This document shows positions 5,045 to 60,760 of a DNA stretch of 63,697 nucleotides, piece after piece; the first letter of the stretch is position 1; each line of letters opens with the position of its first letter. Made by a program: the position numbers and the translations under genes. The notes under the pieces were generated by a model that saw only the letters and a list, made by a program, of their open reading frames with translations, was not told the DNA's origin and did not search any database. Location: contig JAUZTB010000057.1 of NCBI GenBank assembly GCA_034780895.1, forward strand, positions 22,382,419 to 22,446,115, written 5' to 3'. This DNA comes from Rhynchobatus australiae. Its lineage: Eukaryota.

Positions 5045-5690
5045 CAACAAACAAGATGCTGGAGGAACTCAGTGGGTCAGACAGCATACGTGGAGGGAAA
5101 TGGAAAGTAGATGTTTTAGGTCAAGAGCCTTCATCTGGACTGAAAGATAGAGGAGAGACGGTCAGTCTGCGGTAGTGAGCCTGGGTGAGAATATGGTCGA
5201 AGAGCAGGAGTGCAACAAACATGATGCTGGAAGAACTCAGCAGACCTGGCAGCATCTGTGGAGGGAAATGGGCAGTCCACATTTCACTGCGAAGTCTCTT
5301 CAAGGTACGCACAGTTTGAAGAAGTTTTCCTCCTCTCTGACGGGAGTTCTCTGAGACTCTCTCTCATAGCTGCCCCTCTGATTTCTCCTAGTCTTCAACC
5401 ACATTTTCTCCCAGACTCGCTACCACAGACTGCTCATCTCCCTTCTATTACTCGGTCCAGATGAAAAGCCACAGCCCAAGATGTCCTGAAGATGGGTCCT
5501 GACCGGAAATGTTGACTGCCTGTTTTTCTCCGTGGATGCTGCCTGGCCTGCTGAGTTCCTCCAGCATCATCACGTTTTTCACCAAAATGTCGACTGTCCG
5601 ATTCCCTCCAGAGCTCTGCCTGACCCACTGAGTTCCTCCAGCATCTTGTGCGTTGCTCCAGATTCCTCCATCTGCAGCCTCGTGTCTTCA
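5045..5690. mobile_element. Cluster of four Penelope-like terminal-repeat fragments in nested inverted arrangement
   Basis: GATGCTGGAGGAACTCAG...GGCAGCATC...GGAGGGAAATGG occurs at ~5055 and ~5223, and as reverse complement at ~5535-5570 and ~5620-5648. Each copy adjoins a hammerhead-like core. Confidence 0.8.
5483..5516 (+). ncRNA. Minimal type I hammerhead ribozyme motif (Penelope-associated), best-preserved copy in the window
   Basis: GTC-CTGAAGA-tgGGTCctGACCg-GAAA-t-GTT-GAC: helix I gtc/gac, CUGANGA core, helix II ggtc/gacc, GAAA, vestigial helix III, NUH triplet GUU. Activity unknown. Confidence 0.6.
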
Positions 5691-7804
5691 CTTTTCTTTT
5701 GGATAAAGATTTATACCAACACCACAAACACCCTGCTGGAAGAGGTGGTGGAGGCAGGGATTCCCAAAACATTCAAGAATTATTAAGATGAGTGCTCGAA
5801 TTTCCAAGGCAAAGAAAGCTACAGACCAAGTGCTGGTAAATGGGAAAAATGTTTGTCTTAAGTAGTAGGTTAAGTGATTTGGAAAAGACCATAGAGCTAA
5901 GGACTTAGCTCCATTCCCGAACCCCTTTACCAGGCTGTCAGTATCTTCTCTCCACCAAGAGACTCCACAGTTTCCTCTCACACAAGGCAGCAGCTCAGTA
6001 AAACTTTCACAGTGTCAACATGTCACTAGATTTGGCTTGGCCAAAGTATGTCTGTTTACAGAATGTTTCTGGCATGAGGCAGAAACAGAAAAACATTTTG
6101 TCAAATAACCGGAAAGGAGCTCTGCAAATGACCAGATTTTGGATGGACCAAGGGGGACTTCTGAGTGCATTGCAAAAACAAGCTATTCGTAGACCTTCAG
6201 GAACCTTCAATTGCATCAGCTGTCTCACTGGAAAATGTATTTAAAATAAGACAAACAACATGATCGTACAAAAATGATTAATGATTTGAGGCTTGTTTCC
6301 TGTTCTGCCAGCACATTCAGAAAAATCTTACACAACTCAGTAAACTGATGAGCCCTGAAATAGGATCTGATCATCAAAATGTGGGGGGAATACCAGTAAT
6401 GTGAAGAACAGTTCAACAGTCTGCTGATGAGACATGTCTCAGCACCTTTAACTAGCCACCATATCAAATTTCTCTGAACTCATCATTTGCAGTCTTGTTC
6501 TGAGCCCTGGCCCAAACTTTTCAAGTTTAGACTGGGACTTTTAGCATCTCTGCTAATGCAGTTCAAACATCTTTTCCCCAAGCCTTTTTTCTCGCACTCC
6601 ATTTTGGGGTTAGGTCATAATGCGGTTGAAGGAAAAATGTCATCTGGTAAACAAATTTATTTTGAAAGAGTAAAGGAATAAAACAAACTTAATGACAACC
6701 ATTCCTATCCTCTCATCATTATAGGGAAAAGATTCCAGTCATGCACAACTTATCCAGTGTTACTGGGGAGAGAATGCTGTTCTGCAGAAAGATTAATCAT
6801 TCAAAGATACCTTGTCCACAATGCTCTGTGCTGAACTTTACTGCCACTTTTAATTCCCATTGGGGGACAGTGTGGTCAACGATATATCTAAACATTGCAT
6901 GTATTTTGCATTTGACATACCATCATTGTGAGTGGCATGTCTTTTTGAGTTACTGAAGACATTGGGTCAGAATATCGCTCACCATCAAATGAGGAATAGA
7001 TCATGGAGGAAGTCAATAGTCACATATGACGTAAAGGATGCTCGCCGGGAAATGGAATTTACAATCACTGAGTTCCCCTTATTCGTTTCCATGTGCGGCC
7101 TTTTCCACAGAGGCAGCACTGGAAAAGATTGCAGCACCTCTTGGCCCTTGAAGGTGCTTATGTTAGTTGTGGTGGCATTGGCTCAATCACAGCCTGTGGA
7201 CTGTCCACACTGTGTGGCACTCCATCAGGATTCTACTGCACTTTCCGAAGAACAAAGCCCTGATTTCCCCCTTACCCTCCCCTCCACAGAAACCTTGATG
7301 CTCCCGGTGTGGCTGATGTGGAGAGTGAATTCTGATGGAGGTGACCCAGTGCGTGTGTGTGCGTGACACAGTACTGGAAGCTCTACAGTGTTTCCAAATG
7401 GGAAAGAACCACAACAGCCATTTCTTAACACAAGGATGTCACAATTTTGTTATTTTTTTAAAAAAAGCCCTCCAATTTAACATTAGGGTTAAAACAGAAA
7501 TGCACCAAAAATGAATGAAATCTAAATCTTATGCTCTAATCTCTTTTTTTTAAAAAAGCACTGAAGAAAATGTCTGTAAATCTCATTCTCTATTAAATGC
7601 ATATTTTTCCTATTATCCTCTTCACACTTAGCTAAAATTCATGAATAAGACTATGTAACTGTTCCATCACTGCTCTCTGAAGCTTCACTTGTGGCTTTTT
7701 CCTTCCAAAATGAGGCTAAACAGTGTGCCCGCAAGGTACTCAGCGAGGGGAGGGTTGTAATCCAAGCCTGATCCGACTCATAAACACCGACCATTGGGAA
7801 ATAC

Positions 7805-8180
7805 TCAAGAAGTGGGAGACCCAAGTGATCATTGAAACTCACGACACAGGAGGCCATTCAGTCCATTGTACATGTGCATGTCAAAAAAAAAGAGCTACCA
7901 AGCCTAATAACACTTTCCAGCACGAGGTCTCTAGCCCTCAGGGCCACGGTTCTTCAATACACATCCACGTGCTGTTAAATGTGATGGAGGTTTCTGTCTT
8001 GATTGTCCTTTCAGGAAAACCATTCCAGGCTCCTAGCACTCTCCTTTTCCTTATTTCCTTTCTACCAAATCACTTTTAATCCCCTAGTTTTTGACACCAC
8101 ATGTGGTGAAAATAGATCCTTCCTATTTTCTGCATCTAGGCCTCTCGTAATTCAGTTCAATTAACTCTCCATTCTCCTCC
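7805..8180 (-). mobile_element. CR1-clade LINE 3' fragment, decayed
   Basis: Typical 3' tail (..ACACAGGAGGCCATTCAGTCCAT..) followed by pyrimidine-rich antisense ORF2 C-terminal remnants shared with the other CR1 copies in the window. Confidence 0.6.
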
Positions 8181-8744
8181 CTGGCTTACGGCTATTCAAA
8201 GCTCATTACAATTCCAGCACCACCACTTCCCCCCAGCTGCGATCAGCTAGTTTTGCAACAAAGCAGCAATCAGACCCCATACTTTCGTCAATACCAGAAA
8301 CAGATGGGGCATTTTCTTTTTAAGCTGCTAGGCAAATAAAGATTTCCATTCAATTTGTTGCTTTGGCATACACCTCTGCCACACACCTCTGCCACCAATA
8401 AATAGGGAAGGAAAAGGACAGTAAAACACAGGAAATGAAGGAGCAAACAAACTTCTCCTGGCCCCCCTCCCGAGCACTGTGATCTGTCCCACCCTCCCGA
8501 CCCCACCCCACCCCACCACCACTCTTGTCAATTATCTGCTGATTTGTCAAATGAAAGCCAAATGTGTTGGCAGGCACACACGTGGGCCCCACTGAAAATA
8601 AAAATAATACTGCCAGTTTTTGCTGCACCTCCTGCTCGGAATTTTCTTTGATCTGAACTCTGACTACGTAGTGCACAGTGCGGAGAAACAGACGAGGACC
8701 CACACTGTTTGTTGTGCATACTAATGACTTGGATACAAATGTAC

Positions 8745-10600
8745 AAGAGCACAAGAAAATACAAGCAGACATAGGCCACTAGGTCCATTAAGCTTGCCCT
8801 GCCATTCAATGTGATCATGGCTCATCTATGCTGTCCTCAACTCCTATCCTGTATCAGCTCCCCATAACCCTCAATTCCTCGATCTTTCAAATATTTATCT
8901 GTCTCCACCTTAAATATATCTAATGATCAAACTTTCACCATAGTCAAGGATGAGAATTCCAGACAGAATAATTTCCATGCACCTCCGTTTTAAAAGATTG
9001 GCCCCTTATTTTGTAGCTATGTCCCCTTGTTTATGACTCTCCCACTAGTGAGAGCATCTTAACATCTACCCTGTCAAGCTCTCGCATGATCTTAAAACAG
9101 AACACTGGAAGTCAGCAGATCAAGCACACCTGCAGAGGCAAAAACTGTATGTTGACATTTCAGGTCAAGACCCTCCATCAGGACTGAGAGAGAAGAGGAA
9201 AGATGACTGGTAATATAGCAGAAAACAGGGGTGGGACCGAGGCAGATGAAGGTGCCTTTAGATGAAGGTGAAGGAAGATGAAGAGGCAGACGTGATAGGT
9301 GGAACCAGATGAAGAGGAGATGCTGGGCAGATGGAACCAGGTTGGGGAGGTGAGGAAGGGATGGGAAAGGTGAACAAAGGGAAAAGAAGGTTAGGTGAAG
9401 AGGAGCATGTGTGGGAGGGTGGCACTGGGGATGTGGGCGACTTGAAACAGTTACAAGCTATCCAAGCAGAATACGAGATGTTGTTCTTCCAATTTGTGAT
9501 TGGCCTCTCCGTAGCAATGGTCAAAGTCAAGGACAGACAGATCAATGTGGGAGTGGGAAGGAGAGTCAAAATGACATGCAACCCTACAGTCTCTAGTCTT
9601 CATCCCCCTAGGATCTTGTATGTTTGAATAATGTCACCCTTCATTCTTCTAAACTCAAAGACCCAAACTATCTTGCCTCTTTTGATAGGGTAATCCTCTC
9701 AGCCCAGGAATTAGCCCGGTGAATCTCCTTTGGACTGCCTCCAATGCTACCATGTCCTTCTTTAGGTAATGGACCAAAACTGTGCATAGTGTTCCAGGTG
9801 TGGCCTCACCAACACCCTGTACAACTGTAATAAAACCTCCATATTCTTAAGCTCTACTTCCTTGACAATAAAGGCCAATATGCCATTTGTCTTCTAATCT
9901 ACTTGTCAGACCTGCCTGCTAACTAGAAAACCTAGATTCCTCCAAACTTTACTCATTTTCAGTCTCTCTCCATTTAGATAATAATCCCTTTTGATTCCTC
10001 TTACCAAAGTGTATGACCTCACTCTTCCCCACATTAAACTTCATTTGCCAGGTTTTCGCCCCATCACTCAATCTATATCCCATTAAAAAATTATAATATG
10101 ACTTCCACCTACATTACGTTCTCTCCTCAGGTCATTAATGTAAACAGGAAACAATTAAGGGTCAAGAACTGTTACGTCTCTCCAGCCTGAAAAGAATCCA
10201 TTAATTCCAACTCTTTATTTTCCATGTGACAGCCAGTTTCCAATCCACATTAACACGCTTCCTCCATTACCTTGGGCTTTTTATTTATGTACCAACCTCT
10301 TAGGTGGCACCTTGTCAAATGCCATTTGGGAATCTAAATACACTACATCTACAAAGGTCCCCTCTATCAATTCTCCCTTTCACATCTTCAAAGAAGTCGA
10401 ACAAACTTGTCAAACACAATTTACCTTTCATAAAACTGTCGACTAGGTTTGAGCATGTTCAGCTTTCCCAAACGATTAGTTATTTTGTCTTAGATTATTG
10501 ACTCTAGCACCCTTCTAACAATGTATGTTCAGCTAACTGCCCTACTGTTCCCTGCCTTCCATTTTCCTCCCTTTTTGAAGAAAGGAGCCACATTGCATGT
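8745..10600 (-). mobile_element. CR1-clade LINE, 5'-truncated, interrupted by a Penelope-like insertion at ~9095-9590
   Basis: 3' tail at 8745-8830. Antisense RT remnants include ACCAAAACTGTGCATAGTGTTCCAGGTGTGGCCT (RPHLEYCVQFW-like) and ACCTTGTCAAATGCC...AATCTAAATACAC (VYLDF.KAFDKV-like). Confidence 0.8.
9095..9590 (-). mobile_element. Penelope-like element 3' fragment: GIY-YIG endonuclease C-terminus, pyrimidine-rich tract, terminal repeat with hammerhead remnant
   Basis: Minus 9582-9451 translates VACHFDSPSHSHIDLSVLDFDHCYGEANHKLEEQHLVFCLDSL*, resembling the PLE endonuclease tail (VA.HFN...H......R...E..LI..L.TL.P). Downstream lies CAGTC-CTGATGG-AGGGTCTTGACCT-GAAA-T-GTC at ~9150-9186. Confidence 0.8.
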
Positions 10601-12024: not shown

Positions 12025-12275
12025 GGCAGGCATGGTAGTGTAGCGGTTAGCATAACACTTTACGGTGCCAGTGACCCGTGTTCAATTCCGGCCGCTGTCT
12101 GTAGGAGTTTGTACGTTCTCCCCGTGTCTGTGTGGGTTTCCTCTGGGTGCTCCGGTTTCCTCCCACATTCCAAAGACATATAGGTAGGTTAATTTGGGGT
12201 TTAAAATGGGCGGCACGGACTCGTTGGGCCGGAAGGGCCTGTTACCGTGCTGTAAATAAAACTAAAAAAAACTTT
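12025..12275 (+). mobile_element. Near full-length tRNA-derived V-SINE (HE1-related, short subfamily)
   Basis: A-box-like TGGTAGTGTAGCGG, B-box GTTCAATTCC, V-domain TGGGTTTCCTCTGGGTGCTCCGGTTTCCTCCCACA, CR1-type tail GGGCCGGAAGGGCCTGTTACCGTGCTGTA, A-rich end. Confidence 0.9.
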
Positions 12276-12990: not shown

Positions 12991-13224
12991 ATGTTTTGTT
13001 ACCATTTATCCGCATTCTCAATGTATCTCTCTACTCTACCTACCAACTGTTCCATCCGTCCACCTATTAACCCTTTAAAGTACCCATAATCTCATCCATC
13101 TGACACTCTCATCATATTCCACTCTCCACCATCCATCTTCTCAGAGCAACTCTCAGCCCCATTCTATGCACCTTGTCATTCAACTCACCAACCTTCTCAG
13201 CTCCCTCTCATGTCATTTATATGT

Positions 13225-13477
13225 ATTGACCCAGAGGTAAGGAGTGAGGATACTGACTGACCCACCCCACAGATCGAGAGTGAGGATACTGACTGACCCA
13301 GAGACCAGGAGTGAGGATACTGATTGACCCACAAATTGAGAGTGAGGATACTGACTGACCCAGAGACCAGGAGTGAGGATACTGACAGTCCCACAGGTTG
13401 AGAGTGAGGATATTGACTGACCCAGAGATTGGGAGTGAGGATACTGACTGACCCAGAGATTGGGAGTGAGGATACTG
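13225..13477. repeat. 31-bp minisatellite (~8 units visible, runs into a 100-N gap)
   Basis: Unit GAGTGAGGATACTGACTGACCCAGAGACCAG with variants; explains the periodic ORFs in the track. Confidence 0.95.
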
Positions 13478-16319: not shown

Positions 16320-16652
16320 TGGACCTGTTTCCATGCTGCATGTCTCGATGACTGAATCCACACCCACCATCAACCACCCATTTACACTAATCCTACATTA
16401 ATCCCATTTAAAAAAAATTATTCTCCCTACTTTCTCATCAACTCCCCTAGATTCTACCACTGACTTATGCGTTTTACAGCGGCCAAATAACCTATCGACC
16501 TGCACATCTTTGGGATGTGGGGGGAAACCAGTGCACCCAGAGAAAGCCTATGTGGTTACAGGGAGAACGTGCAAACTCCACACAGGCAGCACCCGAGGTC
16601 AGGATTGAACCCAGGTTTCTTGCGCTGTAAGGTTCTATGACCTACACCACTG
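16320..16652 (-). mobile_element. HE1-like V-SINE (long subfamily), preceded by a short plus-strand tail fragment
   Basis: GGGAGAACGTGCAAACTCCACACAGGCAGCACCCGAGGTCAGGATTGAACCCAGG is the antisense head and B-box; antisense V-domain at ~16510-16550. Confidence 0.85.
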
Positions 16653-16734
16653 AGAGGCTTAGGGCTGCTTAATTTAGGAATGCTGGCAGGGAAATGTTCG
16701 TTGGTGAAAGAATGGGTAGGATTGCAATGGGTTT

Positions 16735-16868
16735 CCAGTCCAGATGAAGGGTTTTGACCCTAAATGTTAACTGTCCATTTGCCTCCGTAAATGCTGCCTG
16801 ACCTGCTGAGTTCCTCCAGCATCTTGAACATTGTTCTGGATTCCAGCATCTTCAGTCTCTTGTGCCTC
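16735..16868 (+). mobile_element. Penelope-like terminal repeat with degenerate hammerhead
   Basis: CAGTC-CAGATGA-AGGGTTTTGACCC-TAAA-TGTT-AACTG followed by ATGCTGCCTGACCTGCTGAGTTCCTCCAGCA. Confidence 0.8.
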
Positions 16869-26861: not shown

Positions 26862-28990
26862 ACAGTATACAGAACAGTACAGCACAGTATGAGCCCTTTA
26901 GCCCACGATGTTGTGCCGACCTATATAAACACCTGCTCTCTGATCAATCTAACCCTTCCCTCCTATGCAGCCCACAACCCTCCAGTTTACTTACATCCAT
27001 GTGCCTAACTGAGAGTCCTTTAAATGTCCCTATTGTATCAGTTTCTACAACCACCCCTGGCAGTGCGTTCCAGGCACCCAGCACTCACTGTGCAAAAAAC
27101 CCACCTCTGACATCTCCCCTAAACTTTCCTCCTCTGACCTGAAACGGATGTCCTCTGGTATTGGCCATTGCCACCCTGGGGAAAAGGTGCTGGCCGTTTA
27201 CTCTATCCATGCCTCTCATATTCTTATACACCTCTATCAAGTCACCTCTTATCCTGCATCGCTCCAAAGAGAAAAGCCCTAGCTCGCTCAACCTTTCCTC
27301 ATAAGACATGTTCACTAATCCAGGCAGCATCCTAATGAATCTCCTCTGCATTCTCCCTAAATCTTCCACATCCTTCTTATAATGAGGAGACCAGAACTGA
27401 ACACAATACCCTTAAGTGTAGTCTAACCAGACTTCTAAAGATCCGCAGCACTACCTCATGGCTCTTGAATTGAATCACCCTCTTAAGCACCCTATCAACT
27501 TGCATGGCAACTTTGAGGGATCTATGGACTTGTACCTCAAGTTCTTTCTGTCCCTCCACACTCCTCAGAATCCTGCCATTAACCTTGTACTCCACCTTCA
27601 AGTTCAATCTTCCGAAGTGTATTGCTTCTCACTTTTCCCAATNNNNNNNNNNNNNNNNNNNNNNNNNNNNNNNNNNNNNNNNNNNNNNNNNNNNNNNNNN
27701 NNNNNNNNNNNNNNNNNNNNNNNNNNNNNNNNNNNNNNNNNNTGTTCCTGCACACTGCTAAGAATCCTGCCATTAACCTTGTACTCTGCCTTCAAGTTCA
27801 TTCTTCCAAAGTGTATCACGTCACACTTTTCCAGATTGAACGCCATCTGCCACTTCTCCGTCCAATTCTACATTCTGTCTATATCCAGTTGTAACCTATG
27901 ACAACCTTGTACACTGTCCACAACACCTCCAACCTTAGTGTCATCTGCAAACTTACTAACCCATCCCTCCACTTCCTCATCCAAGTCATTTATAAAAATC
28001 ATAAAGAGCAGGGGTCCCTGAACAGATCCCTGCGGAACACCACCAGTCACCAACCTCCAGGCAGAATACTCTCGATCTACTACCACCCTCTGTCTTCTGT
28101 GGGCAAGCCAATTCCAAATCCACACAGCCAAGTTTCCCTTGATCCCGTGCCTCATGACTTTCTGGATGAGCCTACCATGGGGAATCTTGTCAAACACCTT
28201 GCCAACATCCATATACACCACATCCACTGCTCTACCTTCAATTTGTTTTGTCACCTCCTCAAAAAACTCAATTAGGCTCATGAGGCACAACCTACCCCTC
28301 ATAAAGCCATGCTGACTATCCCTAATAAGACTATGCTTCTCCAAATGCTCATAGAATCCTCTCCAATAGCTTGCCCACCACTGCCATAAGACTTACTGGT
28401 CTCTAATCCCCAGGATTATCTCTATTACCTTTTTCGAACAAGGGAACATTTGTCATCCTCTAACCCTCTGGTACCACTTCTGTGGCCAGGGAGGATACAA
28501 ATATCATCATTAATGCCCCAGCAATCTCTTCCCTCACCTCCTGTAGTAACCTGGGATATATCTTGTCCAGCCCCACGGACTTATCTATCCTAATGTTTTC
28601 AGAAGCTCCAACACTCCCTTTTTCTTAACCTCAACATGATCCAGCACATTAGCCTGTTCTACACTGACCTCACATTTGTCAAAGTCCCTCTCCCTAGTGA
28701 GCACTGAAGCAAAGTACTCATTAAGGACCCCCACCTCCTCTGCCTCCAGGCACAGGTTTCTCCCTTTATCCGAGTAGTCCTACCCTCAATCTAGTCATCC
28801 TCCTGTTCTTTATGCATGTGTAGAATGGCTTGGGGTTTTCCTTAATTGTACTCGCCAAGGCCTTCTCATGTCCCCTTCTAGCTCTTAAGTTCCTTCTTAA
28901 GCTCTTTCCTGGCTACCTTATAATTCTCAAGAGCACTGACCGATATTTGCTTCCTTTTGCACACCTTAAGTGTGCTTCCTTCTTCCTTGC
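26862..28990 (-). mobile_element. CR1-clade (HER1-like) LINE, ~2.1 kb, 5'-truncated, disrupted ORF2
   Basis: ORF 27868-28344 has SQHGF, VDVVYMD..K.FDKIPH, GVPQGSV.GPLLF.IFINDLD and KFADDTK. ORF 27085-27369 has YEERL..LGLFSLE..R.RGDLIEVYK and TRGH. 3' tail at 26862-26925. Confidence 0.95.
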
Positions 28991-31012: not shown

Positions 31013-31429
31013 TATCTTCAGCTTCCATTATGGACTTTGAAGGACAATGCAACACGATGGGCGTGACTCTTACAGGGATAATGCACGGTTGCTGCTTAAA
31101 TAAACATTGTCTTGTAGGGCTTATTAACTGTGGTTCATTTAAGAAATTGCTTCATGGCAGAATAAGTCGCTGTCTTACCAAAGGCCATTGTCATCAAACA
31201 AGTGTGGCTTCCAAGAAAGCACATGAATAAAGACAAATCTCAAAAATAAGACCAAGTTTTGCCAGTGACTCAAAATAATAAGCTTTTAAAGACCTGCCAC
31301 TTGCACTGCTGTGACACTGGACTGATCTCTGAAGGATTGAGTAATTACAGAGAATTATCCAAAATACATGGTTGACTGCAGTACTACTTTTCAATCTGGA
31401 AGTTCAAATGAAAATGAAATGATACTATT

Positions 31430-31555
31430 ACTCAGCAGGTAAGGCAGCAACTGTGGAGAGAGAAACCGGTCGTGCATCAGGCCGATGAACTGCCGCTCTC
31501 TATGAAACTGGCTCTCCAGCTGAGTATTTCCAGCATTTTCTGCTTTTTGCTCCTT
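31430..31555. mobile_element. Decayed inverted pair of Penelope-like terminal repeats
   Basis: ACTCAGCAGGTAAGGCAGCAACTGTGGAGAGAGAAAC ... GCTGAGTATTTCCAGCATTTTCTG. Confidence 0.55.
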
Positions 31556-33789
31556 CAAAGCCAGCTATACAGACACAAGGAAGTGGCAGAAAAGTGGAAC
31601 CAGTCACCCAATAACCCCACCCTTTCAGACAAGCTATGCCTCCATTAATTGGAGCAAATATCACCTCCCCAATTAAAACTGTCACAGTTCTCTGCCTCCC
31701 CATACCATATGACACTCTGCACCCCAGGGTATACCCACCAATATAGTTCCAGTCTGTATCTCACTCCCATCTCCCACAGTTCAGACTGACAGTATTCTGT
31801 GGTCCTGTGTGTTTCCTTTATTTCATGGACCCACTGGGGGTGGGGAAAGGGGAGAACAAATAGGGCCAGTGGAATCACTGAAAAGAAATGCTTCACGTGT
31901 GATTACAAATGGCATGCAGGTATTTGCCCTGTAACGTTGTGGATATGTACACGTGGTCCCCATTGTTTCATACCGACTCCTACCTCCCCAAACCCTTCAA
32001 TGTAAACTGCTATCTTTGACTTCCTTCCCCGTACTTCATCTTCTCCCTTTCCCCTCAGATCCAGCTGGCCCTCTCCATTCTGGGCACGCTTTCTCTCCGC
32101 TTCAGTAATGCTGAGAACCTCCTCGCTTTCCCTTTGACCACCACTCCTGACTCCTGCCCATCACTGCTGCAGGGATTTGAACATGTGTCCATGTTGTGAG
32201 TGCTCATTCCCAATCACTATGCAGGGACCTGCAATGTCAGAATGCCTTCCTGATATCTTGTTTTGTTATTTCTACTGATGATACCATTGCCTTTATGCTT
32301 GAAATTGAAGTGTCCTTAACCACCTGGTTTCATGCTAGTTTACAGGAGCTGCCTGTATACGTTGGGGGTAATCAATTTTGGAAACAGCTGCATTCAACAC
32401 TTCATTTGTATTATCCATGGGGAATTCCTACCCAAAACACAAACACAAAGGTCACATGGATCTGAATATTCCTTTGTATTTTGGTCTGGGGTTTTATGCT
32501 GATAAAGCTCCTGCAATAATTCCACAAGGACTCGCATCATAATTTTTGATATCCATAGCATTGGGAAAACCAAATTATTTCAAATCCAATAGTAATCATC
32601 TAAAATTCTGACTGTTATCAAAAATGGATTTCTTACTTTACNNNNNNNNNNNNNNNNNNNNNNNNNNNNNNNNNNNNNNNNNNNNNNNNNNNNNNNNNNN
32701 NNNNNNNNNNNNNNNNNNNNNNNNNNNNNNNNNNNNNNNNNNNNNNNNNNNNNNNNNNNNNNNNNNNNNNNNNNNNNNNNNNNNNNNNNNNNNNNNNNNN
32801 NNNNNNNNNNNNNNNNNNNNNNNNNNNNNNNNNNNNNNNNNNNNNNNNNNNNNNNNNNNNNNNNNNNNNNNNNNNNNNNNNNNNNNNNNNNNNNNNNNNN
32901 NNNNNNNNNNNNNNNNNNNNNNNNNNNNNNNNNNNNNNNNNNNNNNNNNNNNNNNNNNNNNNNNNNNNNNNNNNNNNNNNNNNNNNNNNNNNNNNNNNNN
33001 NNNNNNNNNNNNNNNNNNNNNNNNNNNNNNNNNNNNNNNNNNNNNNNNNNNNNNNNNNNNNNNNNNNNNNNNNNNNNNNNNNNNNNNNNNNNNNNNNNNN
33101 NNNNNNNNNNNNNNNNNNNNNNNNNNNNNNNNNNNNNNNNNNNNNNNNNNNNNNNNNNNNNNNNNNNNNNNNNNNNNNNNNNNNNNNNNNNNNNNCCTGA
33201 TGAATATGTTATTTTACTTCATTTCTGCTGGTGATAGATGCATATTGTTGCTACACTCATCTTCACAAGCAGCCTTATGAACTTATATGAACAGCACAAT
33301 AAATTTATAACAAAGGTGCAAGCGCTGAACTAATACGAGGACACATTGTGTAAAATAGTTCTTGTAAGAGTCCATGCATTTTGACATGTGCCCCTTTGTT
33401 AGGGTCACAAGGATTCATAAGCCAGCTGAATGAGCTTTATCTTTTAAAATCTGCTGGCCAGTTAAATCTCATTAACCCCTCCTGTTTAATTTGAATCTAT
33501 GATTTTATTCTGCTGCCAACGTGGCTGATTCCAGTTATCCACTTGTCTTGCTCTTTGTTGACATTTCCTTACACGATTTGATTGATCACATCTGTGCTTT
33601 CATCGAATGTACCTGACTGCAGCTTTTTCCCTGCCCTACTTGTTTTCAAATTCAGGAAATTACACATATGTTCTGCAACACCAACCATTCATTGAAACCT
33701 GTTGTAAACAATATTTGGAAACCCAAACAGTTTGGGCTGCACTACAGCCCCAGGTCCACACCATAGCACTGACATTTTTCTAAATGAAC

Positions 33790-34232
33790 ATATTAACCCT
33801 TGGTCTGTGGTGCCTGATGGCTTACTGAGTACAAACACTGACCACTGGTCTGTGGTGTCTGATGGTTTACTGGGTGCAGACACTGACCCCTGGTCTGTGG
33901 TGTCTGATGGTTTACTGGGTNNNNNNNNNNNNNNNNNNNNNNNNNNNNNNNNNNNNNNNNNNNNNNNNNNNNNNNNNNNNNNNNNNNNNNNNNNNNNNNN
34001 NNNNNNNNNNNNNNNNNNNNCCCTGGTCTGTGGTGTCTGATGGTTTACTGAGGGCAGACACTGACCCCTAGTCTGTGGTGTCTGATGGTTTACTGGGTGC
34101 AGACACTGACCTCTGGTCTGTGGTGTCTGATGGTTTACTGGGTGCAGACACTGACCCCTGGTCTGTGGTGTCTGATGGTTTACTGAGGGCAGACACTGAC
34201 CCCTAGTCTGTGGTGTCTGATGGTTTACTGGG
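33790..34232. repeat. 45-bp minisatellite (3 units, 100-N gap, 5 units)
   Basis: Unit CTGACCCCTGGTCTGTGGTGTCTGATGGTTTACTGGGTGCAGACA; produces the 15-aa repeat in ORF 33689-34321. Confidence 0.95.
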
Positions 34233-35062
34233 AAATGCACTTTTAAACACTGGGAAGACAAAGTGTCATCTTTAGTCTCTTTCATACACTCTATTCCCTC
34301 ACCACGGAGTCCGTTCCTCACAATGCAACTGCCTGAAGCTGAACTGGAGTGTCTGGAAACTTGGCTCTGACTTCATATGCTTGTCTGATAATGCTGTTGC
34401 AAAGCACCCTGGGGTGGTGTTGTTGTTGTAGTCTCAATGGCTGTACATAAATGGAAGTCGTTGCTGGTTTCTTGTGTTGTGCTGTTGTCTTATGGATATT
34501 GTTTGTCACAGTTTTGGTTGGTGGGAGGTGTGGATTTCAGAGCCCCAGTTCGAGAGAGAAACCACATCAAAACCTCAACCCTCATCTTCTGTCACAACCA
34601 GCTGCATGTCACACACTTTATAAAAAGCAGGAGGACCTGTCGCTGCAGCTGTTTTCAAGGAAGGATAATGTCAAAACCATTGCAGAGGGTACGACATCAG
34701 CTTTTGTAAGCCAACAAGGCTTGCAGATATAAAACACAAAAATCCGCAGCAAACTACACTCAAATGGCTAATTCTGATACGCTCAGCAGGCATTACTCCA
34801 TTGCAAATTCTTGCACCAGTGATCTGCACTTACAAGGACAGCATTTTGTTGAATGGCAGTACATGTCTCCAAAGTGCTGCAAACACTCAACGTGACTGTA
34901 TTGTTAAATTCCCCTGCCAAATGCAGAGGCAGGCTGAAGTGTCTGTTTGCATTAAAAGAAAAACTCATACCAGTTTCACACTTAAAAGCAAAAGTTCTGC
35001 CCGCTATTTTCCTTCACAGCTTAACAGCAATATGTCAGGATTTCTCTTCCATTTGAACTTAC

Positions 35063-35741
35063 CCAGGAGGGATGGAAGCCCTTGTGCTGACTACTGCTGA
35101 TCTCTGGGTTCCAGGTCTGTTCAGGTTGTTCTGGCCTGGGATCGGAGTTGTTGTGGTGGTGCTCTGGCTTTGAGAGATGGGAGAAAGCTGTGTGGTGGTT
35201 GGCGAACGGGCCTGTTCGGGCTTTGGAGGGGTGGTCCCGGCTGTGCTCATAGTTGACCACAAGGCTGTGCCATTGTAGGAGTTACTTTGGCGGACAGTCA
35301 GAGTCCCGTTGGTGGCAGAATATATTTTCCGTCGTTGGGACGCCAGGATGGCATTGGAGGCTGCCCTTGTGCTGTTGACGAGGACGCACTGTTGGCAGCT
35401 GCACGGTTGCCCCGACTGTGTGCCAATGGGCCAGGATTGAGATTTAGGGATGGAGCCCATGGTCAAAGGGTAGGCCAAGTCCATGCGTCTCCGCAATCGG
35501 CGCTTACGCTGTGTCTGTCTGTTCATCTGGCACATGCTATTGAAGTCAATAATATAACAGAACCCTAGAGAAGTCAGGTCCAACCATGGATGTTGTTTCT
35601 CATATGCATTCTGGATGGTTATGCAAATATCCATGTCGTACGGAGTCCAGGAACAACTGTCATTTTCCCATTCCCAAACTATGCCTTTCCCTGGAGCTGA
35701 AGAAGGGTCATAAAAATTTCTTCTAACTGGACGCATGGTTC
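35063..35741 (-). CDS. DTX1: Internal coding exon of E3 ubiquitin ligase Deltex-1 (end of WWE1, WWE2 domain, basic RRR stretch, linker up to ...RASIPPG)
   Basis: Translation (G)TMRPVRRNFYDPSSAPGKGIVWEWEND...YDMDICITIQNAYEKQHPWLDL...SIPKSQSWP...QPCSCQQC.LVNSTRAASNAILASQRRK...PGQNNLNRPG...RASIPPG matches vertebrate DTX1 as I recall it. NFYD, GIVW, MDIC and the QPCSCQQC block favour DTX1 over DTX4. Acceptor on minus strand is tatttttcacttttcAG|GAACCATG (phase 1); donor is CCTGG|GTAAGT (phase 2). The ORF-track ATG is internal and its stop lies in the intron. Confidence 0.95.
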
Positions 35742-36639
35742 CTGAAAAGTGAAAAATACAAGAGTTTACTCAATAGCAAATGAAGGAAAGCTCAAATCCC
35801 CTGGCAACTTCACCCACTGAACTGAAGCAGTCCACAGATAGACCCACCCGCCAGCACACACCGCATTACCAGTGTTCTTGTCCAGAGCTCTGAATGGTGA
35901 CGTTTCTCTTTTTTTGGAAGCTGGGGATTAACGCAGGCCTTGGTGGGGGACTTCTGACAAACTATCCATAACACATCAAAAGGCTGTATGATACATTCAT
36001 TGTGGAACAATAAACAAGTAGTGGGTTGCAGAAAATTGCAGCTGGCAATCTAATCATCAACCCGCAGTTCAAAAATTTACCAAAAAAACGTTTTGAAAAA
36101 CTGACATGATGTTCTGCAGATCCTTTATTTAGTTACCGTGGTGTCATGGGGCTAGACATTGTTCTAACTGCTTAGCTGGTAATTTAAACAANNNNNNNNN
36201 NNNNNNNNNNNNNNNNNNNNNNNNNNNNNNNNNNNNNNNNNNNNNNNNNNNNNNNNNNNNNNNNNNNNNNNNNNNNNNNNNNNNNNNNNNNNNNNNNNNN
36301 NNNNNNNNNNNNNNNNNNNNNNNNNNNNNNNNNNNNNNNNNNNNNNNNNNNNNNNNNNNNNNNNNNNNNNNNNNNNNNNNNNNNNNNNNNNNNNNNNNNN
36401 NNNNNNNNNNNNNNNNNNNNNNNNNNNNNNNNNNNNNNNNNNNNNNNNNNNNNNNNNNNNNNNNNNNNNNNNNNNNNNNNNNNNNNNNNNNNNNNNNNNN
36501 NNNNNNNNNNNNNNNNNNNNNNNNNNNNNNNNNNNNNNNNNNNNNNNNNNNNNNNNNNNNNNNNNNNNNNNNNNNNNNNNNNNNNNNNNNNNNNNNNNNN
36601 NNNNNNNNNNNNNNNTTTTTAAAACATCCACTCACAAGA

Positions 36640-39099: not shown

Positions 39100-39250
39100 A
39101 CAGTGACACAAAAAAATTCTGCAGATGCTGAATGTATCTGGAGCAATACACAAAATAATGCTGGAGGAACTCCAGCGGGTGAGGCAGCATCTATGGAGGG
39201 AAATAAACAGTCAACATTTCTGGCTGTGACCCTGTACTTCAGGTGGACTA
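39100..39250 (-). mobile_element. Penelope-like terminal repeat with degenerate hammerhead
   Basis: CTGCAGATGCTG...ATGCTGGAGGAACTCCAGCGGGTGAGGCAGCATCTATGGAGGGAAATAAACAGTCAACATTTC; minus-strand core CTGAAGT...GAAA-T-GTT-GACTG. Confidence 0.8.
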
Positions 39251-39684: not shown

Positions 39685-39790
39685 AGCAGGTCAGTTCTAG
39701 TCAAAGGAATTTAACCTGAAACGTTAACAGCATTTCTCTCCATAGATGCTGCCTGACCTGAGTATTTCCAGCATTTTCTCTTCTTATTCC
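39685..39790 (+). mobile_element. Penelope-like terminal repeat, decayed
   Basis: AACCTGAAACGTTAAC...TCTCTCCATAGATGCTGCCTGACCTGAGTATTTCCAGCA; retains GAAA plus palindromic AACGTT. Confidence 0.7.
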
Positions 39791-41465: not shown

Positions 41466-41479
41466 TTTATTAACATAGA

Positions 41480-42025
41480 TAATAGAGTTGTACATCACGG
41501 AAACTGGCCCTTCAGCCCACTGCTATCAAGTGCCATTTACACTAACTCTATTTTATTCTCTCCACATTTCCCTCAACTCTTGCCAGATTCTACCACTCAC
41601 CTACACACTCGAGATAATTTACAGTGGCCAATTAAAACTTTACTTTTAAAAATTTATTTACAGCACTGTAACAGGCCCTTCTGGCTCAACAAGTCCGTGC
41701 CACCCATTTAAATCCACGTTAATCTACCCATGTTAACCTCCAGAAACCGGAGCACCTGGAGGAAACCCACGCAGACACGGGGAGAATGTACAAACTCCTT
41801 TCAGGCAGCAACGGGAATTGAACCCCGATTGGCGCTGTAATAGCATCACACTAACCACTACGCCACCACTTTGGGATGTGTGAGAAAACCAGAGCACTGG
41901 GGGGGGATAACAACGTTATCCACAGGGAGAATGGTAATCTCCACACAGACAGCACCGAAGGTCAGGATTGAACCCAGGTTGCTGGAGCTGGTGAGGCAGT
42001 GACTCTCCCAGCTATTCCACTGGGT
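41480..42025 (-). mobile_element. Nested SINEs: long HE1-like SINE (41480-41635 plus 41869-42025) split by a short-subfamily SINE (~41636-41868)
   Basis: The inner element is the reverse complement of the 12025 family (TTTACAGCACTGTAACAGGCCC...GGGAATTGAACCC...CTAACCACTACGCCACCA). The outer element resumes at CTTTGGGATGTG and has its own B-box GGATTGAACCC. Confidence 0.85.
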
Positions 42026-47714: not shown

Positions 47715-47952
47715 TGCCTCTGTCTGCAAGGAGTTTGTACACTCTGTGTCTGCGTGGGTTTCCTCCGGGTGCTCCGGTTTCCTCCCACATTCCAAAGACA
47801 TAAGGGTTAGAAAGTTTTGGTCGTGCTATGTTGACACTGGAAGTGTGGCGACACTTGCGGGCTGCCCCAGATCATTCTACGCAAAGGTGCATTTCACTCT
47901 GTGTTTCGATGTACATGTGACTAATAAAGAAATCTTATCTCATCTTATCTTA
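47715..47952 (+). mobile_element. 5'-truncated V-SINE with a distinct 3' tail ending in (ATCTT)n
   Basis: V-domain GCGTGGGTTTCCTCCGGGTGCTCCGGTTTCCTCCCACATTCCAAAGAC, then GCATTTCACTCTGTGTTTCGATGTACATGTGACTAATAAAG-AAATCTTATCTCATCTTATCTTA. Confidence 0.8.
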
Positions 47953-48513: not shown

Positions 48514-48538
48514 CACACACACACACACACACACACAC
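48514..48538. repeat. (CA)12 microsatellite
   Basis: Read directly from the sequence. Confidence 0.95.
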
Positions 48539-51834: not shown

Positions 51835-52797
51835 ACTCATAATACCTCAGTACTAATCACCAAGCTTAAAAACCACGGCCTCTGTAGCTCCCTCTGCACT
51901 GGATCCTTGACTTTCTTGTCAGGAGACCACAGTCAGTGTGGATCAGTGGTAACATCTCCTCCTCACTGACAATCAACACAGGTTCACCTCAAGGATGTGT
52001 ACTTAGCCCACTCCTCTACTTTCGCTACACTCATAACTGTGCGGCTAAGCACAGCTCAAATACCATCTACAAATTCGCCAATGACACCACTGTTGTCAGT
52101 AGAATCTCAGATGATCACGAGGCGGTGTACAGGAGTGAGACAGATCGGCTGGTTAAGTGGTGTCACAACAACAACCTTGCACTCCACGTCAACAAGACCA
52201 AGGAATTGATTCTGGACTTCAGGAAGGGGAAGTCAGGAGACACACACCAGTCCTCATTGAGGGGTCAGTGATAGAAAAGGTGAGCAGCTTCAAGTTCCTG
52301 GGTGTCAACATCTCGGATGATCTATCCTGGGCCCAACACATTGATGCAATCATGAAGGCATGCCACCAACTCAACTTCGTTAGGAGGTTAAGAAGATTTG
52401 GGAGGTCACCAAAGACTCTTTACAAATTTCTATAGATGTACAGTGCAGAACATTCTAACTGGTTGCATCACAGCCTGGTATGGAGGCTCCAATGCACAGG
52501 ATCACAAGAGGCTGCAAAGTTGTAGACTCAGTCAGCTCCATCATGGGCACAACCCTCCCCACCATCGAGAACATCCTCAAGAGGTGGTGTCTCAAGATGG
52601 GAGCACCTCCAGAAGGTGGCATCCATCACTAAGGACACTCACTGTCGGGACATGCCCTCTTCTCATTACTACCAGAGGGGAGGAGGTACATGAGCCCGAA
52701 CTTCTCATAATATTTAGTAATCTTGTCTTTGCGTTGTACTGCTGCCGCAAAACAACAAATTTCACATCATGTAAATGATAATAAATCTGATTCTTAT
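51835..52797 (+). mobile_element. Rex1/Babar-clade LINE, 5'-truncated
   Basis: [27 protein letters not shown]...[11 protein letters not shown]...[19 protein letters not shown]; tail AATAAATCTGATTCT. Confidence 0.9.
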
Positions 52798-54674: not shown

Positions 54675-54925
54675 TGAGTCATAGAGAGATGCAGCATGGA
54701 AACAGGGCCTTCTACCTACTGTGTCCACGCCAAACATCAACCACCCACTTACACTAATCCTACAGTAATCCCATTTTTATTCTCCCGACATCCTCATCAA
54801 TTATATTGACGAATTAACCTTCCAACCCAAGTCTTTTGGAATGTGGAAGGAAAGCAGAGCACCCAGGGGAAAGCCTCACTGTTACAGACAACATCCGAGG
54901 TCAGAATTGAACCCGGGTCTCTGGA
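54675..54925 (-). mobile_element. HE1-like V-SINE (long subfamily, internally deleted)
   Basis: GAGTCATAGAGAGATGCAGCATGGAAACAGG tail through CCGAGGTCAGAATTGAACCCGGGTCTCTGG head. Confidence 0.85.
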
Positions 54926-55036
54926 AGAGATTTTTCCTCACCCGGAGTATGATGGTGCTCTGGAACTCACTGCCTTAAAATGCATGGCAAAGGCACCTAT
55001 ATTCAGCATTTAAAAGACACTTGGATGCGCACTCAA

Positions 55037-55385
55037 AGGCACGGTGGCACACTAGTAGAGCCATTGCCAAACAGTGCCAGAGACCCAGGTTCAATCCCGA
55101 CCTCAGGTGTTGATTGTGTGGAGTTTGCAGGTTCTCTGTGACCGCAGGTGCTCCAGTTTTTTTCCTACATCCCAAACGCCTGTAGAGCAGCAAGTTGATT
55201 GGCTACTGTAAATTGCCCCTAGTGTATAGGTGCATGGTAGAATCTGGGGGGGGGAGGAGTTGCTCAGAATGTGGGGAGAATGGGATTGGTGTAGGAGTGG
55301 TGTACATGAGTGGTTGAAGGTGGGCATGAATTCAATGGGCAGAAGGGCCTGTTTCCATGCTGCATCTGTCTCTCTGACTCTACAA
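55037..55385 (+). mobile_element. HE1-like V-SINE (long subfamily), near full length
   Basis: GGCACGGTGGCAC head, B-box GGTTCAATCCC, TGTAAATTGCCCCTAGTGT body, tail GAAGGGCCTGTTTCCATGCTG...CTCTGACTCTA. Confidence 0.9.
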
Positions 55386-56255: not shown

Positions 56256-56889
56256 CCTTTGTTATTAAGAAGTTTGCCAAAGCAACATAATAAGGACCAG
56301 AAATGACTTCAAAAGAGTTGGACCCCTATCTGGCTGGTCAGTGATCATCTCATTTGCAGGTAGGCACTGAACCAGGATCTAGGAATCAAAGACTCACAAC
56401 AGCACGTAGTGAGCAGGGTTGGGGTGGATATTCAGTCCTATGAGCAGATGCTGACTCTTGCAGGAGTGNNNNNNNNNNNNNNNNNNNNNNNNNNNNNNNN
56501 NNNNNNNNNNNNNNNNNNNNNNNNNNNNNNNNNNNNNNNNNNNNNNNNNNNNNNNNNNNNNNNNNNNNNNNNNNTTAGAGCATGAAAATACTTTTCCTCC
56601 TGGCAGTGCTGTTCCTTTGGCTAAGCATTTTAACTCCACGTCCACTGAACTTCCACCTTTCTGCATTAGGAACCCTTTCTTCTTCAATCCCTTTATGATT
56701 TTCCACTGCTCTGTCGATTCAGGAGAGGCTGGACGGGAACTCTGGAACTTTTCTTTCTCCAAATTGATCTGGTGTTTTGGCATTTTTTAATCTCAGCTAG
56801 CAGATCAGCTCATACTATGTGGGTGGAAGGTGTTATAACCTGATATACAAGGTTACAACCTTTGTGTAGGCTACAGGAAATAAACCAGG

Positions 56890-57172
56890 GGTTTATTTAA
56901 GGGGAGAGAGGGTAAAGTTCAAAGGAGATGTGCAGGGCAAGTGTTTTTTTTACATAGCGAGCAGTGGGTGCCTGGAAGACCAGGGGTGGTAGTGGAGGTA
57001 AATACGATAGAGGCATTTTAAAGGCCCTTAGATAGGCATATGAATGTGCAGAGAGTAGAGTGATTGACATTGTGTAGGCAGAAGGAATTAGTTTAGTTAG
57101 GCATTTAATTAGTAGTTTAGTTAATCCAGCAGAACTTCATGGGCCGAAGGGTCTGTTCCTGTTCTATGTTCC
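56890..57172 (+). mobile_element. CR1 3' end, same subfamily as 63035-63495
   Basis: Shared diagnostic TGTGTAGGCAGAAGG...GTTTAGTTAGGCATTTAATTA and tail GGGCCGAAGGG.CTGTTCC. Confidence 0.85.
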
Positions 57173-59074
57173 AATACAATTGATGTTTTCAGCCTGACAG
57201 GGTATCAACATGGTCACCCAGATTATTTAATTGTTGAAATAGCACATTTGGACTCACTGAACTTTGAGGAAGTTAAACAGAAGTGGATTTACATATGATG
57301 ATAGATGTCTTGATGTATTTCTATGATTGGACACAATTTGGCAAGGGGGCTTTGTCCAATTTCAAAAACGCCACATTTCCAGAAGAGTTCAGTCTAGTTG
57401 ATATCTGAATCTACAGTTGCTCTACTATCGGTACAAGGCAGACATTTTCTACAACTCCAGCTAAGGCGCTCATAATTATTTTAAGACAATTGATTCTGAT
57501 CAGTGGCTGAGGAAATGGAAGGAAAACCATTCAGGAGTACTAGAAAATAAAGCTAGACTCATCTGGGGTCAGGATCAGTATCCTGGGGCCAAGGTGAAAN
57601 NNNNNNNNNNNNNNNNNNNNNNNNNNNNNNNNNNNNNNNNNNNNNNNNNNNNNNNNNNNNNNNNNNNNNNNNNNNNNNNNNNNNNNNNNNNNNNNNNNNN
57701 NNNNNNNNNNNNNNNNNNNNNNNNNNNNNNNNNNNNNNNNNNNNNNNNNNNNNNNNNNNNNNNNNNNNNNNNNNNNNNNNNNNNNNNNNNNNNNNNNNNN
57801 NNNNNNNNNNNNNNNNNNNNNNNNNNNNNNNNNNNNNNNNNNNNNNNNNNNNNNNNNNNNNNNNNNNNNNNNNNNNNNNNNNNNNNNNNNNNNNNNNNNN
57901 NNNNNNNNNNNNNNNNNNNNNNNNNNNNNNNNNNNNNNNNNNNNNNNNNNNNNNNNNNNNNNNNNNNNNNNNNNNNNNNNNNNNNNNNNNNNNNNNNNNN
58001 NNNNNNNNNNNNNNNNNNNNNNNNNNNNNNNNNNNNNNNNNNNNNNNNNNNNNNNNNNNNNNNNNNNNNNNNNNNNNNNNNNNNNNNNNNNNNNNNNNNN
58101 NNNNNNNNNNNNNNNNNNNNNNNNNNNNNNNNAATAAGTAATTACAGTGAAGAAAAGACCACAGATGGTTTATAAAGCAATTCCCATGGGAAACTTCAGA
58201 AGATAAAGTCAACTGTATAAACCTGTCTGTGATTTTCACTCAGCTTCATCTCTGATAGGACCAACTCTTTATCAAAACTGAATAAACATAAATAGGCCTT
58301 AACTCCTTGATTCTATAAATGTTGGAACAAGCAGTCCAGCTTTCTGATGGATCCTGCAATTTTCCTTCCAATTTAGCTCTTGGTTATGTTGTTCATTTGA
58401 AATAATGCTGATGTTTCATTTATCCAATTATCAATTCCATTCCATTTATTCCATTCCATCCCTGTTCCATTCATCAATTATAAGAAATCAATCTGCTAAC
58501 AAATTGAAGGGAATGGTGACATGAACAATGCATCGATCTACAGCACACTACAACAAGGTCACTTAGTGGCAGGTTTATATGTGGGCAAGGATAAAAACAT
58601 TGAAAATATGACGTCTAGGCATTTATTCAGGTCTTGTTCTGTTAAAGCTAACCAAATTAGACACTCACATGGTCCATTAGCAGGAAAGAGAACAAAAGCT
58701 GCATGGTCACTGCATTTATAGATAATCTTCACTCAGTCCAAAAGTGTGAATCTAACTTTTGGTCACTTTAATTCTCTGCTCGATGTGAAGGGGAAATGAT
58801 GAGAGAAGAGAATGGGGGACTGGCAGTGCATGCAGAAGTGGAAGGAAAGAACTTGGACATCATTGCCAAAGAATCTAGCAAGTTAAATAAAGGGCACCTG
58901 ATTTGCCCAACCACGCTGCTGTCCATGTGGACATGCCCAAAATTTCCCCCATCGTTATTACAAGATTATACAAAAAGGCAAGAGGTAGAAAGATCAACTG
59001 CACGAGGGTTAAATTCCAATCTCTAACTAGGGCAAGGCTTTTACTAATGTGTAAAATTAGCCCCATGTCATCCT

Positions 59075-59350
59075 TTGGAAACAGGCCCTTCAGCCCACCA
59101 AGTCCGTGCCAACCCATTTATCCAAACCCATTTTATTCTCCCCACATTCCCATCAACCCTTCTACACTCACCTACACACTAGGGGCAATTTACAGTGGCT
59201 AATTAACCCACCAACCCAAATACTTTTGGGACATGGGAGCAAACCAGAGCACCTGGAGGAAACTCGCGCAGTCACAGGGAGAACATGCAAACTCCACACA
59301 GACAGCAAGAAAGCTCAGGATTGAACCTGTGTCACTGAAGCTGTGGAGAT
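59075..59350 (-). mobile_element. HE1-like V-SINE
   Basis: GGAAACAGGCCCTTCAGCCCACC...ACACTAGGGGCAATTTACAG...GGGAGAACATGCAAACTCCACACAGACAGC...GGATTGAACC. Confidence 0.9.
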
Positions 59351-59594
59351 ATGACAAGTTAATATAACAGATGCTTGTCCTCTGGCAATGGATAGGGGCT
59401 TGNNNNNNNNNNNNNNNNNNNNNNNNNNNNNNNNNNNNNNNNNNNNNNNNNNNNNNNNNNNNNNNNNNNNNNNNNNNNNNNNNNNNNNNNNNNNNNNNNN
59501 NNNNNNNNNNNNNNNNNNNNNNNNNNNNNNNNNNNNNNNNNNNNNNNNNNNNNNNNNNNNNNNNNNNNNNNNNNACTCCACAATATGGAGATAT

Positions 59595-59741
59595 CAGAGA
59601 TTCCGCTGATGCTGGAATTTGGAGCAACACAAAACACTGGAGGAACTCAGCAGGAGGACCTGAAATGTTGACTGTTTATTTCCCTCCATAGATGCTGCCT
59701 GACCTGCTGAATTCCTCCAGCATTTTCTGTGTGTTGCTCCA
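59595..59741. mobile_element. Penelope-like terminal repeats joined as a short inverted repeat
   Basis: TGGAGCAACACAAAACACTGGAGGAACTCAGCAGG (59620-59654) pairs with CCTGCTGAATTCCTCCAGCATTTTCTGTGTGTTGCTCCA (59703-59741). The loop keeps only GACCTGAAATGTTGACTG of the hammerhead. Confidence 0.8.
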
Positions 59742-60564
59742 CTCCACAATATGAAGTTCAGGACCTGGAATGTCTGTGCCTTATGGAGAATCCCAACAGG
59801 AAAATGGAGTGGAAGCAAGTGATCCTCAACCTTGAGGGACTACACAAGAATAAGGACTTTAAGAACAAGTAAATAAAAGTGGAAATTGGCAGTTCCAATG
59901 CTGTCGTTTAATGGTGGGAGATAACAGAAAGGCAATGGAATGAATTTGCCCCCCCCACCCCAACCCAAATAAAATGAGCTTCTTCAGAATTTCCTTTAGA
60001 GCCTTCTCCAAAACATCTATTTTGTTCATTGGATGAACGTCACTACAGTTTACAAAGTAACTGACTTACGTGAATAAACAGTTGTCACTTTGAACCTTTT
60101 GGATATGGCAGAGGGGGCAACCTGCTCCGAGGTTTGTACTTATTATGCTTGGTAACTAGATGCTCATGAGCTGTTTACATTGATCAATTCAATGTTCTCC
60201 TCATTTACTGAGAGGAGGCTTCTGCCTAACTCTTGGAGGGATAACTCAGGTCAGGTATAAATAATGCTACAGGTTTGTCAATGTAAGATATTTACNNNNN
60301 NNNNNNNNNNNNNNNNNNNNNNNNNNNNNNNNNNNNNNNNNNNNNNNNNNNNNNNNNNNNNNNNNNNNNNNNNNNNNNNNNNNNNNNNNNNNNNNATAAA
60401 TAATGCTACAGGTTTGTCAATGGTACATTGCCCTGCTGTATACAAATTGAAAAAAACCTCTTCTGGTTTCAATGACATTGGATTTTATTTTCTCCACCAC
60501 AATCATCAAAACATGCACAAGAATCTGCTTTAAGTGAGATTCATTCAAACAGAACAATAAAAAG

Positions 60565-60760
60565 TTAGAATACTGCAGATGCTGCATATACTCAGCAGCA
60601 GGTGCAGTGGGGAGAAAAAAAAATCAAAGTTCTCATTTCAAACTGATAACCTTTCACCAGAACTGGTAAACAGTAGAAGATGCAAAGTGCAGAGAAAGGG
60701 GGAAGGGCAAAAGAACACATCAATTGGAAAGATACATAGGTGTGATGGGAGAGGGTGGTG
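60565..60760 (-). mobile_element. Decayed Penelope-like terminal repeat plus purine-rich tract
   Basis: TACTGCAGATGCTG...ACTCAGCAG; minus-strand core GTT-CTGGTGA-AAGGTTATCAGTTT-GAAA-TGAG-AAC. Confidence 0.55.

Follow-up and report, generated by a model that had tools for sequence, protein, structure and literature searches.

The stretch of DNA analysed here, called the window below, comprises 63,697 nucleotides (nt) of the ray Rhynchobatus australiae (assembly GCA_034780895.1, contig JAUZTB010000057.1) and contains a coding exon of the gene DTX1 together with a dispersed family of short repeats that bear traces of a hammerhead ribozyme motif. These repeats are probably the decayed ends of an elasmobranch Penelope-like element (PLE), likely of the Neptune/Nematis type, with an ancestral minimal type I hammerhead and with copies that are likely inert by now. 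A profile built from the window copies (nhmmer) detects 13 matches at E<=0.0035, and at E<=0.01 it detects none in any of 20 shuffled versions of the window. With a partial copy at 5453-5485, which is recognised directly in the sequence, all copies and coordinates given by a first-pass annotation, made from the sequence alone, are found to exist. Counting the interrupted copy Cp/D as one, there are 13 units per 60.5 kb of called sequence, which stem from about 8-9 insertion events; seven are sense and six antisense to DTX1. The copies are old, since their median pairwise identity (55 pairs from 11 aligned copies) is only 0.64. A weak profile match at 62441-62491 on the minus strand (E 0.02-0.57), possibly a very old copy, was left out of the count. 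The copies are as follows.

Copy A, 5044..5210, minus strand: about 70 nt of pyrimidine-rich upstream pseudo-long terminal repeat (pLTR), hammerhead motif at 5142-5105, short 3' end without tail.
Copy B, 5212..5309, minus strand: inverted stump from near C3 with a heavily decayed core (register uncertain), without tail.
Copy Cp, 5310..5485, plus strand: upstream pLTR followed by the 5' portion of the hammerhead, a CAGATGA variant, as far as the cleavage triplet; copy C interrupts it. The start at 5310 is inferred, and homology to copy A is established for 5385-5465.
Copy C, 5486..5579, plus strand: likely nested in Cp/D at the cleavage triplet.
Copy D, 5580..5690, plus strand: the rest of Cp on its 3' side, carrying the optional tail of 30-40 nt.
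Copy E, 9080..9603, minus strand: remnant of a GIY-YIG C-terminus (9603-9454), pyrimidine-rich spacer, hammerhead (9186-9149; A9G) and short end, within a long interspersed nuclear element (LINE).
Copy F, 16732..16865, plus strand: begins at helix I; U4A and G12U; with tail.
Copies G (minus) and H (plus), 31395..31555: old head-to-head fold-back without 5' core; outer limits approximate.
Copy I, 39112..39250, minus strand: degenerate core in which no register could be set; with tail.
Copy J, 39690..39790, plus strand: second subfamily, with CAGTT/AAC as helix I and 14 nt in the helix II region; begins at helix I, three core faults.
Copies K (minus, with tail) and L (plus, from helix II, without tail), 59575..59753: fold-back between 13-bp direct repeats.
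Copy M, 60570..60720, minus strand: second subfamily, upstream pyrimidine tract, three core faults; upstream limit approximate.

The host gene is represented by a single feature.

35062..35745, minus strand: DTX1 coding exon with the second WWE domain (Deltex), corresponding to residues 86-315 of the Mobula protein.

The best relatives of this exon are DTX1 of Narcine (98%), Mobula (97%) and Rhinoraja (92%), which by itself points to a ray as the likely host. A sensitive search of the window for other DTX1 exons gave only chance matches of 5-9 residues, and the sequence on either side of the exon is probably long intron. The copies had been described as lying throughout the DTX1 introns; an intronic position is likely on both sides, but only one exon of the gene is found in the window.

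Hammerhead consensus and the Penelope link

The majority sequence of the window copies is CAGTC-C(A/T)GATGA-AGGGTCTTGACCT-GAAA-TGTT-GACTG. The CpG-containing form proposed in the first-pass annotation, with a palindromic ACGT in place of helix III, is a reconstruction and not the window majority, but it makes a fair ancestor, backed by contigs of four related runs (X1-X4). Between 17,423 and 31,407 contigs per run were aligned on copy F, and their summed depths, which favour the letters of the reference copy, should not be read as copy numbers. CpG-type variation in these contigs is located at 16760-16769: 16761 T>G accounts for 47% of the depth in X1, 16765 T>C for 34%, 16768 T>C for 51% and 16769 A>G for 50%, and the CG of the palindrome is regained in about a third to half of the contig depth. 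The loose-end consensus upstream of 16770 is a hammerhead as well, reading CTGATGA in X1 and CAGATGA in X2-X4, which makes U4A the majority letter in three of the four runs. All three core elements whose presence the first-pass reading depended on (CUGANGA, GAAA and NUH) are found in the family consensus, i.e., in the window majority and the contig consensus, with T and A at U4 at similar levels. As judged from these sequences, the ancestral hammerhead would have had a 5-bp helix I, a helix II of 4-5 bp, an ACGU palindrome and a GUC triplet. A consensus made by script from five copies was distorted by CpG decay, gave no hammerhead fold and was set aside.

Eight copies are in register and can be scored, while D, G, H, K and L are without a 5' core. 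Core faults number two in A, seven in B, three in Cp, none in C, one in E, two in F (U4A and G12U) and three each in J and M; those of A are U4A and G12A. Core and helices are both intact in none of the eight, a result that concerns the window copies and not the ancestral element. Copy C has all 12 core positions, but its 10.1-11.1 pair, which closes helix II, is broken, three of the five helix I pairs are left, and its folding does not surpass that of shuffles; in copy F, helices I and II both fold (mean pair probability 0.86; z -2.2). The palindrome replacing helix III would form four Watson-Crick dimer pairs in one of the eight copies and is wobble-decayed in four. An Rfam scan of the window at E<=5, a check proposed in the first-pass annotation, returned four matches, none of them a hammerhead. 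As to covariation of the helices, RNAalifold run on the window copies recovered none of the two and no compensatory base pair, its sole structure being a hairpin of 5 pairs further downstream, and a single C-G to U-A change in two of the eight (J and M) is likely one subfamily event. The copies had been called ribozyme motifs; as working units these are not confirmed: between one and seven core faults occur in seven of the eight, and copy C, whose core is intact, has damaged helices. The window copies are likely inert.

One of these core changes is common. The U4A form, CAGATGA, is shared by three of the eight (5137, minus; 5458, plus; 16741, plus). A different change at this position, U4C, retains in vivo activity in a viroid, and U4A is not named in the pertinent passages of that work (PMC3088659). 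The frequency of this core form tentatively suggests that cleavage is dispensable. Its abundance fits the report that catalytic mutants of an Anolis PLE still insert in vitro (Frangieh et al. 2024, PMC11167929).

Reminiscent of a 3' splice site, a tract of pyrimidines runs up to the 5' strand of helix I at 5142-5138 (minus), 5453-5457 (plus), 9186-9182 (minus) and 60665-60661 (minus), in A, E and M to CAG; some 20 nt beyond the cleavage site there is another pyrimidine-CAG. In the Penelope element of D. virilis an intron ends at helix I (PMC4209133), and a comparable pyrimidine-CAG 3' splice site within helix I would be compatible with the sequence of the present family.

The link to PLEs was first proposed from a GIY-YIG-like tail on one copy, and this tail is confirmed as a remnant at 9454-9603 that matches endonuclease (EN) C-termini. 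Its extent needed correction: the tail is joined to the hammerhead, but the insertion covers about 9080-9603 and not 9095-9590. Copy E lies inside a LINE, and contigs join 9079 to 9604-9611 across it. The tail peptide (frame 9454-9591, 46 aa) gave 25 phmmer matches with a best E of 2.5e-9; among eight of these relatives that were looked up, seven are named elasmobranch proteins from skates, a stingray and sharks, and one is unnamed. In several of them a GIY-YIG motif immediately precedes the matched region. A second protein search extended to proteins with both reverse transcriptase (RT) and EN, in which Pfam GIY-YIG is found in six of six (two at cut-off) and RVT_1 in four of six (one at cut-off). 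RT is present in the relatives P0149, P0164, P0173 and P0175 and absent from the window. Seven of eight relatives have a CX2-5CXXC linker 50 residues ahead of the YIG-like motif, which is a distinguishing feature of the Neptune and Nematis clades (Craig et al. 2021, PMC8557442); the window fragment is without it. The EN remnant is multi-copy in the four runs, where other copies are longer than that of the window by 26-27 nt at 9449. A second, independent link of a PLE to the hammerhead, at the level of the peptide, is the gene model P0151 of the zebra shark Stegostoma, which consists of RT, EN, a proline/serine-rich spacer and then a peptide matching the hammerhead in frame. By its match to elasmobranch RT and GIY-YIG proteins, the repeat stands as the hammerhead-bearing terminus of a PLE that the first-pass annotation had taken it for.

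Several points weigh against the interpretation as PLE ends. The 46-aa window fragment alone has neither a Pfam nor a word-index match, and a search of the ESM Atlas with it gave one uninformative match at 0.75. The EN tail is found on one of the 13 units, and the link through P0151 is at the peptide level only. A full-length element did not turn up as DNA, with no matches in motif scans of viral and metagenome contigs, and a related-locus scan with P0175 gave 88 candidates, none of which was confirmed. The Neptune/Nematis clade is assigned by motif and not by tree. A clear target-site duplication (TSD) is present at one of nine boundaries tested, and starts seem to cluster at helix I (five of nine), unlike what random truncation would give.

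Some relatives of the tail outside the window are of interest in themselves. P0144 (Heptranchias perlo) and P0160 (Rhinoraja longicauda), both named 'receptor-transporting protein 3-like', have zf-3CxxC fused to a PLE linker and GIY-YIG endonuclease; the two models share the junction and are 54% identical across 299 columns spanning both domains. That a shark and a skate share this fusion suggests a domesticated Penelope endonuclease in a receptor-transporting protein (RTP) gene; a literature search on an RTP-Penelope endonuclease fusion found nothing relevant. The skate models P0127 and P0161 (neuromedin-U receptor 1 and a PF15008 protein) also end in PLE endonuclease tails, each in one species, and may be annotation read-through.

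Insertion shapes and competing explanations

The order established for the family is the GIY-YIG C-terminus, a pyrimidine-rich spacer, the hammerhead motif, ~55 nt of conserved downstream sequence and an optional tail of 30-40 nt. Two 3' ends are evident also in the contigs, whose cover drops at 16826, with a second block over 16835-16864. Copies are arranged head-to-head in K/L, G/H and B versus Cp/D, and the tail is on only one arm in the fold-backs K/L and B/D; B and A follow each other head-to-tail as a partial tandem with a spacing of 168 nt. The fold-back K/L (z -6.3) is bounded by 13-bp direct repeats at 59575-59587 and 59741-59753, the left one abutting an assembly gap, and the score of this TSD is matched by one of 300 random window pairs. 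In the TSD search, seven of the nine boundaries are within chance; the 9/10 repeat flanking copy C (5476, 5582), which may be a TSD, scores 7, a value also common in the null. Around copy E a decayed 14-nt duplication is seen by eye only (9/14 and 13/14 to the LINE consensus). The inverted stumps, partial tandem, optional tail and 13-bp TSD match PLE insertions as described (PMC8557442).

Five of the nine core-bearing copies (B, C, F, I and J) appear to begin near helix I, without the upstream pyrimidine tract, the pyrimidine share upstream being 0.33-0.53 in these versus 0.73-0.80 in A, Cp, E and M. No readable copy begins at the cleavage site, which argues against copies made from cleaved RNA.

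In the Anolis element, the tail spans the sequence from one internal RT start site to the other (PMC11167929). By analogy, the RT/EN protein of the PLE would nick DNA and prime reverse transcription within its own RNA, downstream of the hammerhead, at either of two positions, and this choice would yield the two kinds of 3' end, tailed and tailless. Most complementary DNAs (cDNAs) would end after 90-150 nt and few would extend to the endonuclease, while some would flip and leave head-to-head stumps. In the active parent, the hammerhead may have cleaved only as a dimer, in which a pair of ACGU palindromes makes up helix III, or with the help of protein (PMC4209133; PMC11167929). After insertion, CpG deamination would wear down both helices (I and II), G12 and the palindrome. 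Cleavage was probably unneeded for making these insertions, and the repeats are likely short PLE end insertions rather than a retrozyme.

An unlikely explanation, the best of the alternatives, is a derivative resembling a short interspersed nuclear element (SINE): a non-autonomous unit of ~100-135 nt in which a putative initiator-like TCAGT at the front edge of helix I would give rise to a short transcript, to be copied in trans by the PLE protein from the internal priming site. On this view the units would be complete copies of a small RNA and not random truncations. The five of nine starts near helix I, with none readable at the cleavage site, are what it would produce, pLTRs of PLEs contain internal promoters or initiator-like sequences (PMC2377424; PMC3846280), and pLTR-derived retrozymes have been proposed for vertebrates (bioRxiv 2026.07.22.740005). 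Yet the copies number only nine and their boundaries were set by eye, with B starting at an inversion junction and I degenerate. Upstream sequence varies by subfamily (alignments among A/Cp, E and M do not exceed the null), which makes missing homology a weak sign, and cDNAs that run off at the 5' end of the parent itself would look alike without any self-propagation. Moreover, in X1 the mean cover over 9179-9209 is 27,524 with no top loose end at 9186-9200, which suggests that many copies run upstream.

Extended to elasmobranchs at large, the same idea would make their PLE termini a very abundant SINE-like unit of ~100-135 nt, with an initiator overlapping helix I, that is copied uncut from the internal priming site and whose U4A lineage was amplified like the canonical one, a proposal that is doubtful but, if true, would be genome-scale evidence that the PLE hammerhead is a promoter or protein-binding mark and not a cutter. 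The window copies touch on this question of the hammerhead's purpose, and should genome-wide data bear out an extensive U4A lineage together with 5' ends at helix I instead of the cut site, elasmobranch genomes would offer a natural test of the role of cleavage in PLE mobility.

It is very improbable that the copies are the monomeric, dispersed offspring of a classical tandem retrozyme, whose head-to-tail repeats self-cleave as dimers to give circular RNAs. The head-to-tail arrangement of B and A, the few contigs that link 16824-16826 back to 16732-16739 and the retrozymes averaging 363 bp in one chondrichthyan (bioRxiv 2026.07.22.740005) are in its favour. However, its products should begin at the cleavage site and go round the circle, which the window copies do not, the head-to-tail joints rest on 1-2 contigs each, and partial tandems are normal for PLE insertions (PMC8557442). 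No tandem units that each have a complete hammerhead, and no array with two intact cores, occur within the window, and in the preprint itself eight of nine tested dimers were uncleaved (bioRxiv 2026.07.22.740005). The retrozyme-like, non-autonomous spread suggested at first is so far unsupported, and the shapes fit ordinary PLE integration.

That the host retained the copies for cutting or regulating the DTX1 pre-mRNA, for which the seven sense units might speak, can practically be dismissed, as each scorable sense copy (A, B, E and M) has core faults, the sole intact core (copy C) is antisense to the gene, strand bias is absent and the ~64% alike copies have neutral CpG-type decay.

The window also contains other repeats. 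LINE reverse-transcriptase remnants and LINE 3' pieces lie at 27775-28770 (minus), 51888-52268 (plus), 10128-10364 (minus), 8900-9079 and 9604-9800. A second dispersed family of short, SINE-like repeats is found at 16473-16628, 41744-41990, 54829-55136, 59189-59344, 12104-12185 and 47743-47796, and minisatellites at 13219-13477 (31 bp period) and 33724-34275 (45 bp period) both touch assembly gaps.

Comparison with known systems

The family shares with non-LTR retrozymes its origin from a pLTR, its non-coding nature, the type I hammerhead and the occurrence in a chondrichthyan, but retrozymes are defined by tandem units with a complete hammerhead, and the chondrichthyan families described may or may not be that of the window (bioRxiv 10.64898/2026.07.22.740005). 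A literature search found no paper on this hammerhead-bearing PLE family in rays, and the supplements of the 2026 preprint could contain the family.

The Anolis Poseidon element PAc likewise has a hammerhead at the junction of pLTR and open reading frame (ORF), two 3' ends split by a tail and an insertion into its own pLTR, comparable to copy C (PMC11167929). It belongs to another clade, however, and its mechanism is carried over here by analogy. Insertions of EN-containing PLEs of the Neptune/Nematis type show the same heavy 5' truncation, partial tandems, adjacent inverted copies and a 30-40-bp tail at one end only, and the CX2-5CXXC linker is found in the relatives; in contrast, most copies here are only 90-150 nt long, and the microsatellite targeting of those elements is not seen at these sites (PMC8557442).

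The closest counterpart is the minimal hammerhead ribozyme of metazoan PLE pLTRs described by Cervera and de la Pena (2014, PMC4209133). In that work, whose relevant passages do not name sharks and rays, helix II has 7-8 bp in Schistosoma as opposed to 4-5 bp here, and the common U4A core variant and the damage to all window copies are further differences. The type I layout with a 5-bp helix I and an extra base between 9 and 10.1, the palindrome in place of helix III, the copies in their thousands, mostly solo and linked to truncated PLEs, and the opposite-strand pairs 100-700 bp apart are all features in common (PMC4209133). By its consensus sequence, the repeat family belongs to these minimal hammerheads of metazoan PLE termini; it adds a PLE family from a ray to a class in print since 2014 and illustrates how densely the stumps of such elements pepper a genome.

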